NCBI GenBank assembly: GCA_965218425.1
Contig: OZ244621.1
Coordinates: 1,792,001-1,856,000 of the forward strand
Source of the DNA: an uncultured Candidatus Binatia bacterium
Lineage (GTDB): Bacteria; Desulfobacterota; Binatia; UBA9968; CAXXLF01
DNA length: 64,000 bases
Direction of reading: 5' to 3'
In this document: piece by piece, positions 24,440 through 41,456 of the stretch
How the letters are laid out: each line of letters opens with the position of its first letter
Numbering within the stretch: position 1 is the first letter of the stretch
Notes under the pieces: model-generated
What the model was told of the DNA's origin: nothing
The model's input: only the letters and a program-made list of their open reading frames with translations
The model's database searches: none
Made by a program: the position numbers and the translations under genes

Positions 24440-25060
24440 CTAATGAGCCTCGTAGCATCAGATGAACGGGGTTTCAACAACTAAGGGATAAAAGTTCCCC
24501 TCCCTATCTTTTCCCTTGCAAAGACAAGTGAAAATGATTATGAAATGCTCCTCCAATCCTTTAACAAGAATTTGCTCAACATGTTGGACAAGAATTAAAT
24601 TCTTAATGCTGTTCTTTGTGATGTTGCCTTTGCCCAGCTTCTCATGGTCCTCGATTCCAGCGTATCAACATGTTCCTTACGACTATCTCTCATGGTTTCT
24701 CACACTGTGGAAGGGATCATTCCACCGTCATTCATGCCTTAAAAACCGTTGAGGAGAAAATCCAACAGGATCCGTACGTCCAAGCCACCGTAGATATACT
24801 CACTAAATCATTGAAACCCTAGCTGGGGATAACCTGTGACTGACGTTGGGAGTAACGTGGATAAAACCAGTATCATGGGCTATGATGACACTTAAAGTTT
24901 AGATAGAGCGTAAACCACCCTTTGAAACGCACAATGAAAATCATTATATTTCAGCACCTTGGGGTGTTTTCATCTGTTACCCACAGGACTTACAGTTACT
25001 ACTGATATATTTTAATTAAGAGAGAAGAATAAGGGCTGGTTAATTGCGGAAGGAGTCCGA
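24440..25060. other. oriC: Probable replication origin oriC
   Basis: AT-rich intergenic region upstream of dnaN. DnaA-box matches TGGGGATAA (24824), CGTGGATAA (24856) and TTACCCACA (24977), the last followed by GGAC, TAC-type trios and an AT tract. Confidence 0.75.
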
Positions 25061-25063
25061 GCA

Positions 25064-26170
25064 ATGGAATTCAAGGCTAGACGAGAAGATTTTTTAAATG
25101 CGCTGTATTGGACCCAAAGTACGGTCGAACGCAGAACCACTATGCCCATTCTGGCAAATGTGTTGATCGAATTTCAAAAAGGAAACACGCGCGTCACGGC
25201 AACGGACTTGGAAGTAGGGGTCAGGGCAAAACTGGAGGGAGAAATTCTTCAAGAAGGTGCCATCACCATAAATGCAAAAAAACTCTATGAAATAGTTCGA
25301 GAATCCGGAGGGGACGCGATTCAGTTAAAACGTCTGGAAAATGACTGGGTGGAAATAAAAAGCGGAAAATCAATTTTCAAGATGGTGGGTTTGGATCCAA
25401 AGGATTTTCCCAGTTTTCCGGAATTCGGTGATGAACATTTATTTTCTGTTCCTGCAAAAGTTATGAAGGAGATGATCGATAAGACAATGTTTGCTGTATC
25501 CACTGACGAGACCCGCTCAAATCTCAATGGGGCGTTCCTGGAGGAGGGGGAAGGGGGAAAACTCAGGATGGTAGCTACGGATGGACATCGTCTAGCTCTC
25601 ATTGAAAGGGCCGTAGGAAGCCTTGGTTTGGCTAAGGGGGTAATTCTGCCCAGGAAGGGATTGGCTGAGCTGAAAAAACTCCTCGAAGAATCCGACGATG
25701 AAATGGCCCAATTTGGTTTTAAGGAGAACATAGCCTCAGTTCTGAAAGGTAATGTAGAACTCTTTATGCGTTTGTCGGAAACGGATTTCCCTGACTACGG
25801 CAAGGTAATACCTAAGGCAAATCCCTTCAATGCCAGGGTAGAACAGCGTGGGTTCCTACAAGCCCTCAAACGGGTTTCCATCCTGTCCAGTGAGCGGTAC
25901 AAGGGGATAAGGATAGAGGTGAAGCCGACAAATATGTCCATATCGGCAAATAACCCGGACTTGGGGGAGGCGGTGGAGGAGCTAGAGGCGGAGTATGAGG
26001 GAAAGACCCTGGCAGTGGGGTTTAACGCCCGCTACTTGATTGATGTTCTGAGCGTGCTGGGAGACGAGAGGGACGTGGGGATCGAAATGAAAGACGAATT
26101 GAGCCCGAGCCTGCTCAGGAAAGACGGGGATGACGGCTATATGTACGTGGTCATGCCCATGAAACTTTAG
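25064..26170 (+). CDS. dnaN: DNA polymerase III beta clamp
   Basis: PILANVL, ATDLE, ATDGHRL, GFNARYLID and YVVMPM motifs. Confidence 0.97.
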   Translation: MEFKARREDFLNALYWTQSTVERRTTMPILANVLIEFQKGNTRVTATDLEVGVRAKLEGEILQEGAITINAKKLYEIVRESGGDAIQLKRLENDWVEIKSGKSIFKMVGLDPKDFPSFPEFGDEHLFSVPAKVMKEMIDKTMFAVSTDETRSNLNGAFLEEGEGGKLRMVATDGHRLALIERAVGSLGLAKGVILPRKGLAELKKLLEESDDEMAQFGFKENIASVLKGNVELFMRLSETDFPDYGKVIPKANPFNARVEQRGFLQALKRVSILSSERYKGIRIEVKPTNMSISANNPDLGEAVEELEAEYEGKTLAVGFNARYLIDVLSVLGDERDVGIEMKDELSPSLLRKDGDDGYMYVVMPMKL

Positions 26171-39308: not shown

Positions 39309-39923
39309 TCACTCGTTTTCGTCTTTTTGCTTGAGGAGGTCCACCAAGCGGATGGAATGCTCTTCCATTTGTAGAATAAGAGCTTGAGTTTTGCTTTGTA
39401 GGTACTTGTGCATGACAAGAGTTGGGATAGCTACGCTCAAGCCGGCGTAGGTGGTGATGAGGGCCTGCGAGATCCCGCCGGCAAGGGAGCCGGGGTTGAC
39501 CACCGTCTGAGATGAAATGACCGAGAAGATTTGAATCATGCCTGATATGGTTCCCAACAACCCTAGCAGAGTGCTGACTCCTGCAATGGTTCCCAATCCT
39601 TCTACGAACCGTTCCAGGGAGGCGCTCTCCTGGCGGCCCACTTCCTCTAGGTATTCTTTGATGACTTCCCGTTTTCTGCCGAAGTTTTTGATCCCAACCA
39701 AAAGAATTCGAGCCATGGAGGAAGTGTTTTGCTGACAAAGCAGAGCGGCGTCGGGAAGTTTTTCTCCGCGAATGAGCTGCTCGACGTCACCAATGAAATC
39801 CTGTGGGATGACGAGTTTCCATCTTAGATTCCACAATCTCTCGATAAAAATGGCTAGGGCGGTAATGGAGCAGAGGAGGATCGGATACATGAAGATCCCC
39901 CCTTTGGTGAAGAAATCGACCAT
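39309..39923 (-). CDS. exbB: ExbB/TolQ/MotA proton-channel family protein
   Basis: GG..M.PI, LLGLLGTI.GMI and GISQALITT.AGL.VAIP motifs. Confidence 0.9.
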   Translation of the reverse strand: MVDFFTKGGIFMYPILLCSITALAIFIERLWNLRWKLVIPQDFIGDVEQLIRGEKLPDAALLCQQNTSSMARILLVGIKNFGRKREVIKEYLEEVGRQESASLERFVEGLGTIAGVSTLLGLLGTISGMIQIFSVISSQTVVNPGSLAGGISQALITTYAGLSVAIPTLVMHKYLQSKTQALILQMEEHSIRLVDLLKQKDENE

Positions 39924-40173
39924 GTCTTACCTCATTGATCGCATGTTCGTAATTTATCTCAACATTTCGGTTATGGCAATAGATTAAGATGCGGTGGCAA
40001 GTCGGTTCCCGTCGAGGGGTTTGCCTCAGGGGCAGTCCTGGTACGGGTCTAAAACGCACTGCTATTTTTTAAAAGCCACAACTATTGAATCTGATGAATG
40101 AATAATAGCAGAAAGATTATGTGCTTCGCGAAATTCATTTTGAAAAAATGTTTTGTAAAATATCATTTTTTTC

Positions 40174-40227
40174 TTGACATACTATTTGTGGTGTAACTAT
40201 AATTAAAGTGTCTACAAAATGTGGGAG
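40174..40227 (+). promoter_or_regulatory. Consensus sigma70 promoter overlapped by tandem NrdR-like boxes
   Basis: TTGACA (40174)-18 nt-TATAAT (40198); ATACTATTTGTGGTGT (40179) and CTACAAAATGTGGGAG (40212), 33 bp apart. Confidence 0.7.
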
Positions 40228-40320
40228 GGGTTTTAAACTAGGTTCTCTTCGCCTGAGCATTTAACTTTCCCTCGTTCTTTCGTAGATGCCCACTGGAGGC
40301 AATCTAGAAAGGAGGTGCCT

Positions 40321-40374
40321 ATGGCAGCGAAGAAGAAGGCAAAAGCGAAGAAGAAGGCAAAAAAGAAAAGATAA
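40321..40374 (+). CDS. 17-aa Lys/Ala-rich micropeptide MAAKKKAKAKKKAKKKR
   Basis: SD AAGGAGGT just before the ATG, its own promoter upstream and a terminator-like hairpin downstream. Confidence 0.75.
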   Translation: MAAKKKAKAKKKAKKKR

Positions 40375-40462
40375 TATTGTCTGTGATTGGATGTGGCGTG
40401 GTGGCGTTGGTTTGAACCCTCCATGATCTCAGGCGATAGGGCGGCTGTTCTGGCTACCCAAA

Positions 40463-40510
40463 GGTCAAGGCCCTTCAGTCATTCACGGCGGAAGGGCCTT
40501 GACCATTTCT
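40463..40510 (+). terminator. 14-bp perfect hairpin, probable terminator of the micropeptide transcript
   Basis: GGTCAAGGCCCTTC / GAAGGGCCTTGACC followed by ATTTCT. Confidence 0.65.
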
Positions 40511-40622
40511 ACCTTCCATTATTATCTCTTGCCGCGAACTTCCCTCGATCATCTCAATTCAATATTGTAGCAGAAATGAGGCGTGTCGTATTTTTCCTGT
40601 TGATGGCTATGGGTCAGGATCC

Positions 40623-41456
40623 ATGAGAAAGCAAATCGGAGAAGTCGTGGTGGATATCTCACCGCCGGAGAAACAAAAATTTAGGTCTCCTGTGATCCTC
40701 GTCCACGGCCTGTGGACCGGAAGTTGGTGTTGGTCCGGCTGGGCCACGCGCTTTTCCAACCTTGGTTGGGAGTGCTGGTCGGTGAACATGAGGGGTCGGG
40801 TTGAAGAGAGCCGTGGAAGGACCGTTTCTCAATTGACCTTTGAGCGGTGCGTAGAGGATCTCAGGGACGTTATTCGTGCTGCCGGACCCAAGGCCGTTTT
40901 AGTGGGCCACAGCTTGGGCGGGATCATGGCCATGGAGGCAGCAGATGATAACAACATCTCGGCACTTATCCTGGTTTCGCCCCCGCTACCAGGCAACGAG
41001 CCCAAGTCCATGGGGCGAAGCCTTCAACTGCTGCGTTTGAAATACTTTTTGCCGGTTGTTCTGCGTTTGCCTATTTGTATCAAGGAGGATGACTTTTCCC
41101 GTCATTGGCTGGGATCTCTGCCGAGGGCTTGCCATGGCGACGTCCTGAGGAGGTTGGTACCGGAGTCCAGTTATTTGGTGCAAAGGCTCTTCAAGCCCCA
41201 GGTCTCCCCGGAGTCGGCGCTAGTAGTTAGGTGTCCAGTTTTGGTAATGGCGGGTATGGATGATCGGGTGGTCCCGGTGGAGGCAGTGCGGCAGAGGGCG
41301 CGACTCTTGGGCGCTGAGTTTAAGGAATATCCCGATCGTGGTCATTGGATGGTGGAGGAAGAGGGTTGGGAGGAGGTGGTGAATGACATTCATCGCTGGA
41401 TTGTTCAGGGGCTCGGGGAAGAGATTCTCCTCGCCGAGTTTCCCGGAAGATCCTAG
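40623..41456 (+). CDS. Alpha/beta hydrolase
   Basis: LVHG, GHSLGG, DRVVP and GHW motifs. Confidence 0.88.
   Translation: MRKQIGEVVVDISPPEKQKFRSPVILVHGLWTGSWCWSGWATRFSNLGWECWSVNMRGRVEESRGRTVSQLTFERCVEDLRDVIRAAGPKAVLVGHSLGGIMAMEAADDNNISALILVSPPLPGNEPKSMGRSLQLLRLKYFLPVVLRLPICIKEDDFSRHWLGSLPRACHGDVLRRLVPESSYLVQRLFKPQVSPESALVVRCPVLVMAGMDDRVVPVEAVRQRARLLGAEFKEYPDRGHWMVEEEGWEEVVNDIHRWIVQGLGEEILLAEFPGRS

Follow-up and report, generated by a model that had tools for sequence, protein, structure and literature searches.

The closest described counterparts of the gene reported here are the Lys-rich, histone-H1-like proteins, represented by Chlamydia Hc2 (PF07382), the Burkholderia-type NF038053 and the tails of Pseudomonas AlgP and PhaF, which it resembles in composition and type of repeat. 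Hc2 is 165–237 aa in size and carries a long Lys-rich pentamer array; its length is described as varying by repeat number (PMC2848022), as it does in the Binatia series below, and KPAA-repeat peptides are reported to bind DNA in vitro (PMC9239181). The control region of the gene, on the other hand, resembles the NrdR regulon, with two 16-bp boxes and a 17-bp spacer. NrdR is reported to bind and repress at a 17-bp spacer, with a working range of 14–17 or 24–27 bp, and to require dATP plus ATP for binding (PMC12051234). A non-nrd target concerned with chromosome topology, topA, has been described in P. aeruginosa, where there is one box and the gene is activated (PMC4409342), whereas the Binatia unit has two boxes over a micropeptide promoter. 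The Binatia peptides also differ from the H1-like proteins in being only 12–19 aa long (at most 84–104 aa in the syntenic slot), and the short form has no folded domain and almost no Pro. Particular to this unit are its NrdR-type operator, its regulon and its UTR helices; operator and helices were not found in published accounts of H1-like families, and no account of the gene or its RNA motif was found in the open-access literature.

The unit lies in a 64,000-nucleotide stretch of the genome of an uncultured Candidatus Binatia bacterium, called the window here, and its features are collected in Table 1. The promoter hexamers, described as perfect in the first-pass annotation, agree with the consensus in 12 of 12 letters, and only four perfect TTGACA/TATAAT pairs with 16–18-nt spacers exist in the 4.46-Mb genome, this promoter being one of them. 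Directly 5′ of the −35 hexamer lies a conserved, UP-element-like AAAAT..TTTTTTTC stretch (40157–40173), which is also found in class members. The Shine-Dalgarno sequence (SD), the 17-codon Lys/Ala ORF and the 14-bp hairpin named by the same annotation are all present in the letters. The encoded peptide (10 K, 5 A, 1 R and 1 M; 1.94 kDa; pI 11.6) is hydrophilic (GRAVY −1.9) and likely unfolded. A six-frame scan of the genome returned its ORF as the only K/A/P run that is 12 or more residues long and contains 5 or more K, and the unit is single-copy, with one profile match in its own genome. A terminator scan called no terminators, passing over the 14-bp hairpin because its U-tract is weak in this genome; the tails of the corresponding hairpins in relatives are mostly U-rich. 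Contigs from one RNA run with few matching words covered 247 nt of the downstream hydrolase gene and nothing of the unit; a 34-nt match in them is a Lys-repeat look-alike that belongs to a different gene. This outcome bears on transcription of the unit in neither direction.

Table 1. Features of the peptide locus and its neighbours in the window (strand given where assigned).
Feature	Position	Strand	Remarks
MotA/TolQ/ExbB-family gene, divergent	39309..39923	-	Pfam PF01618; context only
Sigma70-type promoter	40174..40203	+	TTGACA 40174-40179, 18-nt spacer, TATAAT 40198-40203
NrdR-like box 1 ATACTATTTGTGGTGT	40179..40194		in promoter spacer; 11.9 bits, nrdJ matrix
NrdR-like box 2 CTACAAAATGTGGGAG	40212..40227		over presumed start region; 12.6 bits, nrdJ matrix
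A strand GGAGGG..TT of long-range helix P1	40224..40232	+	families f1/f2 only
B strand TCGCCTGAG of long-range helix P2	40249..40257	+	class-wide
Shine-Dalgarno sequence AAGGAGGT	40309..40316	+	AAGGAGG invariant in 46/46 aligned loci
17-aa ORF MAAKKKAKAKKKAKKKR plus TAA	40321..40374	+	seen in letters, alignment and metagenome loci
G/U-rich tract, 3′ UTR	40389..40411	+	3-6 GG per tract in 46/46
A′ strand AACCCTCC, anti-SD-like	40415..40422	+	P1 partner of A
B′ strand CTCAGGCGA	40428..40436	+	perfect 9-bp inverted repeat with B
Hairpin P3, 7-bp stem, 7-nt loop	40439..40459	+	6/7 pairs with both-side changes
Terminator-like hairpin, perfect 14-bp stem 40463-40476/40491-40504	40463..40510	+	weak U-tract in this genome
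Alpha/beta hydrolase, downstream	40623..41456	+	Pfam PF12697; context only

Conservation argues that this is a gene. A DNA search of 60 relatives recovered the unit in 29 of the 32 genomes of families f1 and f2 (4/4 from the same family and 25/28 of f2; E ≤ 4.2e-13) and in none of 28 from f3; the three f1/f2 genomes with no match are 78, 87 and 98% complete. An SD and a 12–19-aa Lys/Ala ORF are kept in all 30 aligned loci, with length changes that preserve the frame, and most of the named records that contain a full unit bear the title Candidatus Binatia or Deltaproteobacteria, a few being titled otherwise. Metagenome loci were then retrieved by the 3′-UTR motifs alone; after removal of 10 that were too short and 18 duplicates, 92 of 120 remained, of which 91 carry an SD and a 12–17-aa ORF with at least 40% Lys, and 81 a promoter-like pair. 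One identical 16-aa peptide is encoded by 19 different DNA sequences among these loci. Since the ORF recurs with its SD in 91/92 loci and varies synonymously, it appears to follow the pattern of a translated gene. The sole exception, L518, has a longer acidic frame that runs into the Lys tail and replaces promoter and leader, representing an insertion, a fusion or a chimeric assembly. As far as comparative sequence data go, the locus is confirmed as a real, conserved micro-gene, and comparison with relatives likewise supports the independent transcription unit proposed at first pass.

Looser searches mostly returned chance matches, with true units at 8 of 120 loci in one pattern search and 3 of 6 in another. 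A phylum scan with a loose pattern matched 11 of 401 genomes, and 4 of the 11 loci are short stand-alone Lys/Ala ORFs. Stand-alone Lys-rich micro-ORFs of 16–22 aa with no clear P2 or boxes were seen in distant genomes (L189, L193, L206, L210 and L311). None of 16 viral pattern matches carries the unit, and a phage origin was rejected on that account.

The first-pass annotation had placed two 16-bp motifs matching CwAtATaTwG over the promoter. Their positions and their 33-bp distance (17-bp spacer) hold; the match itself is imperfect, because each box agrees with the consensus in only 7 of its 10 core letters. To score them, 30 reductase (nrdJ) loci were taken; 8 were dropped for want of a scoring pair, and the other 22 supplied the 40 distinct boxes of a matrix, which were picked using the consensus of the first-pass annotation and have a training median of 15.2 bits. 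With this nrd-promoter matrix, the peptide pair ranks fourth among tandem pairs genome-wide, after nrdJ, mraZ and smc. The genome's own nrdJ-type promoter has the same layout, i.e. TTGACA, box 1 in the spacer, the −10 hexamer and then box 2. The unit's spacer falls inside the published 14–17-bp range and its boxes overlap the promoter. The 33-bp spacing recurs in 42/46 genomic copies and 82/92 metagenome loci, and in 3/22 nrdJ promoters. A pair score of at least 18 is reached by 37/46 genomic and 80/92 metagenome copies of the unit, by 15/15 parsed smc promoters (10 of 25 smc loci were unparsed, 9 of them from f3) and 20/25 mraZ promoters, and by 0/500 sampled background upstream regions. The genome also encodes NrdR, at 550,931–551,371 (TIGR00244, 198.8 bits; cut-off 124.65). 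Sequence comparison, matrix scores and the presence of nrdR together support a putative NrdR-like operator.

The smc boxes of this genome lie at 1,148,910 on contig C1 and the mraZ boxes at 2,510,908; across the order (L396–L445) box spacing is 31–33 bp at smc and 41–43 bp at mraZ. Judged by these promoters, the NrdR regulon here appears to extend to smc and mraZ. The remark that no nrd gene lies near the unit is correct, the class I/II reductase match being at 430–432 kb, and its absence is less odd because smc and mraZ have such boxes too. A search of the open-access literature gave no report of NrdR boxes at smc, at mraZ or at an H1-like gene; supplementary regulon tables may list smc or mraZ. 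Separately, an 18.3-bit NrdR-like box was seen at position 1,185,241 of contig C1 (L198), near a gene of 294 aa with a type I restriction HsdR N-terminal-like domain.

The boxes do not extend through the whole class: 22 class members from other Binatia families, outside this order, keep the gene and lack the boxes, as do the f3 long forms described below. Among three distant records with the gene, boxes are present in L324 (16.6/10.3) and L320 (11.1/10.4) and absent from L322. Both the gene and its NrdR control thus seem non-essential, because the slot is empty in five f3 genomes and the boxes are lacking outside the order and in f3.

The kinship of the peptide emerged from f3: 28 genomes were searched, 17 gave a match, and 9 of those could be resolved. 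In G024, G044 and G048, a PAKK-repeat protein of 84, 89 or 104 aa fills the slot that has the divergent exbB on one side and the hydrolase or ccdA on the other; in a fourth genome, G040, an 89-aa form precedes a ccdA-like start and exbB was not seen. These proteins begin with MAAAKKK, like the short forms. In the other five genomes the slot is empty and the hydrolase is retained. The other Binatia families have forms of 19–40 aa, most of them before the same hydrolase (18/20 parsed), so that the locus provides a length series of absent, 12–19, 19–40 and 84–104 aa. Against Pfam HC2 (PF07382; cut-off 40) the long forms score 39.0, 39.6 and 40.4 bits, values obtained on low-complexity sequence and for the syntenic long forms only, the 17-aa peptide being below the 20-aa minimum of the scan; NCBIfam H1-like models match the long forms far below their cut-offs, and members of 30, 38 and 40 aa have no Pfam family match. 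By exact look-up, none of 13 homologous sequences (21–104 aa) is present in a collection of 15 billion proteins, which start choice or filtering could explain, and the ESM Atlas gave no usable match for a 38-aa member. Because the sister-family slot holds PAKK-repeat proteins at the HC2 threshold, the peptide is most likely a minimal H1-tail-like polycation, which backs the histone-H1-tail kinship suggested at first pass. The 17-mer would thus be the short end of an H1-tail-like series, and its length rules out HC2 membership.

On this comparative evidence, the peptide probably takes part in packing nucleic acid, in time with the synthesis of DNA. Which nucleic acid, or other polyanion, is involved is a separate matter, as composition cannot separate DNA from RNA or polyphosphate. 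The main rival to nucleoid DNA keeps the gene and its control as they are and directs the peptide, like the KPAA tails of PhaF and AlgP, to RNA, ribosomes or polyphosphate. The PhaF tail is reported to bind mRNA (PMC12818456) and AlgP to associate with polyphosphate granules (PMC9239181); a +10 peptide has no intrinsic preference for DNA; and the conserved G/U tract could form, together with P2, an autoregulatory RNA site. The operator type, which nrdJ, smc and mraZ also have, speaks for the chromosome cycle instead, and for ribosomes in particular a range of 12–104 aa at one locus misfits a fixed ribosomal pocket; the ribosome binding mentioned at first pass obtained no support. We consider this rival unlikely, if still worth keeping in mind, and retain nucleoid DNA as the preferred target.

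Beyond the features noted at first pass, the RNA contains two long-range helices, P1 and P2, which cross each other and by which the 5′ UTR pairs with the 3′ UTR on the far side of the ORF. Across 46 aligned f1/f2 copies, 90.8% of cells are paired in P1 with no double changes, and 96.4% in P2 with one double-changed pair; P1 and P2 covary weakly. The corresponding values are 96.9% for P3 and 92.4% for the terminator hairpin, the latter with both-side changes in 12 of 15 pairs. A class-wide search with a pattern of B, SD and start only, in which P2 itself had no part, matched 69 of 151 genomes (6 hits for the reversed-pattern control). Fifty of the matching loci were examined (30 supplied by the search and 20 hand-picked): 22 have a short Lys-rich ORF, and all 22 have a P2 of 10–15 bp followed by a hairpin and a terminator, whereas in the remaining 28 P2 reaches 0–10 bp. 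In 71 loci compared, each variable position of P2 is either G-U or compensated, and A-C does not occur; the changes are few, stem from related events and concern strands located by motif. The lack of A-C favours RNA pairing over twin DNA sites. A 7-bp P2 core is near-invariant in these 71 class loci and the three distant records, the location of strands by motif partly building in the pairing. Nested folding gave P2 a probability above 0.5 in 12/46, 13/22 and 2/3 copies, and P1 in 17/46; in the ensemble of the window copy (P2 0.05, P1 0.02) neither dominates the predicted fold. P3 and the terminator are thus well supported, P2 likely and P1 plausible.

No cognate signal was obtained for further pairings. 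Pairing of the G/U tract with C-rich leader segments, as in a third clamp with the CCCRCC leader motif, did no better in cognate than in non-cognate pairs, and neither did leader–A and leader–SD pairings; P1 and P2, with hardly any variation, gave no signal in this test either. Family f7 (L336–L351 and L361–L365) has an extra 3′-UTR motif, GCTAGGCACGTA, and carries its G/U-rich tract in the 5′ leader, not in the 3′ UTR.

Such a fold raises the question of whether the RNA is the main product, structured, possibly pseudoknotted and bound by protein at P2, with the ORF as a passenger or coating partner. The crossing of P1 and P2, the good covariation of P3 and the P2 core, with the reservation on its location just given, are compatible with this. 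The f3 members, however, keep the ORF with no clear P2; the ORF varies synonymously; and Rfam returned no match near the gathering score for the window stretch and 8 homologous loci, in which only tRNAs exceeded the cut-off. A stand-in for 6S RNA or tmRNA was rejected, since the genome encodes both elsewhere. We regard an RNA gene as improbable and continue with the peptide as the product.

The mRNAs of hok, aapA and icaR, which encode type I toxins or other products, also pair their 5′ and 3′ UTRs. They share with the present unit, whose UTRs are long and structured, a short ORF enclosed by long-range UTR pairing and an anti-SD-like tract in the 3′ UTR (here A′), and distant anti-SD sequences are reported to be able to repress translation (PMC12697547). 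This could suggest an mRNA of the type I toxin kind, in which anti-SD pairing from the 3′ side closes the SD and an antisense RNA exerts control. The unit departs from these mRNAs in having neither a predicted SD shut-off nor a convincing antisense promoter. In the folding model the median energy for opening the SD is 4.35 kcal/mol in nascent, 4.65 in full-length and 3.95 in pseudoknot-proxy RNA, and A:A′ is stronger than SD:A′ in 46/46 copies; with opening energies predicted to be about equal across states, an on/off switch of the SD, whether through A′ or through the pyrimidine tract of the leader, was not supported. The antisense promoter candidate over the SD reaches at most 9 of 12 matches and is absent from 5 of 46 copies. 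The peptide, moreover, is hydrophilic rather than of the hydrophobic membrane type, and the locus is single-copy and missing from the viral matches. A toxin-like mRNA is therefore most improbable.

Tandem Lys codons followed by a terminator with a weak U-tract could also belong to a leader peptide whose task is to attenuate transcription running on into the hydrolase gene, which follows the unit in 20/29 f1/f2 loci and 18/20 parsed class loci, and A (GGAGGG) could pair with the 5′ arm of the terminator. Set against this, the alpha/beta hydrolase is outside the lysine pathway, an intact unit precedes a different gene in 9/29 f1/f2 loci, five f3 genomes have the hydrolase without the ORF while others have ORFs of 84–104 aa, and the Lys codons are mixed across copies (AAG 264, AAA 189). 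We consider attenuation very unlikely and return to a stand-alone peptide gene. A possible promoter for the hydrolase (40499–40527), with TTGACC and a TATTAT-like hexamer 15 nt on, overlaps the 3′ arm of the terminator and was not called by the scanner. Upstream of the unit, a PF01618-type gene is present in 8/29 f1/f2 loci.

The first-pass annotation placed the unit about 15 kb from oriC. The GC-skew minimum agrees with this, lying at position 24,818 of the window, 15.4 kb upstream of the unit and directly before a dnaN-like gene; however, the full-length dnaA is at 18–19 kb of the contig, ~1.8 Mb from that minimum, and the distance of the unit slot from dnaA is inconstant among relatives, being 21 kb in G044 and 447 kb in G039. 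Around 24,676–25,400 of the window, the dnaN-like gene is preceded only by a 66-aa ORF resembling a DnaA C-terminus. The separation of dnaA from the origin is either real or an assembly rearrangement.

Taken together, we favour, at somewhat better than even confidence, a strong promoter that is repressed by NrdR in f1 and f2 and yields a stable, end-joined mRNA for a +10 peptide compacting nucleic acid, probably nucleoid DNA. The very strong sigma70 promoter would produce a stand-alone mRNA of roughly 300 nt encoding a histone-H1-tail-like Lys/Ala(/Pro) polycation in its shortest form. In f1 and f2, NrdR loaded with dATP plus ATP would sit on the two boxes and repress this promoter, co-repressing nrdJ, smc and the mraZ-led division cluster; at low dATP the repressor would leave and a burst of peptide would follow, if the direction of control is as we infer. 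The unfolded peptide, with a net charge of about +10, would neutralise and compact nucleic acid without sequence specificity, most likely nucleoid DNA, alongside SMC at high dNTP demand. Aided by P1, which crosses it, and by P3 and the terminator, P2 would tie the mRNA ends around the ORF in a fold predicted to leave the SD about as open as in nascent RNA, so that P2 may serve stability or as a protein-binding site rather than as an on/off switch. A bolder version, in which pseudoknotted, end-joined mRNA and peptide form a dNTP-gated, fast-switched nucleoid condenser, P2 being recognised by a protein or by the polylysine product itself, within an NrdR cell-cycle regulon of nrdJ, smc, mraZ-dcw and the peptide gene, seems to us quite unlikely.

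If the favoured reading is true, the gene is among the smallest stand-alone bacterial nucleic-acid-binding genes, from a family apparently missed by gene callers even in its 84–104-aa forms, and the helix that joins its ends is a candidate for a new cis RNA motif. With its natural series of lengths, this one locus offers a way to ask how short a working H1 tail can be. For the organisms, a class that is widespread and uncultured, the dNTP sensor NrdR would be tied to an H1-like polycation as well as to SMC and the division cluster, and the packing of the chromosome would be linked to the supply of precursors.
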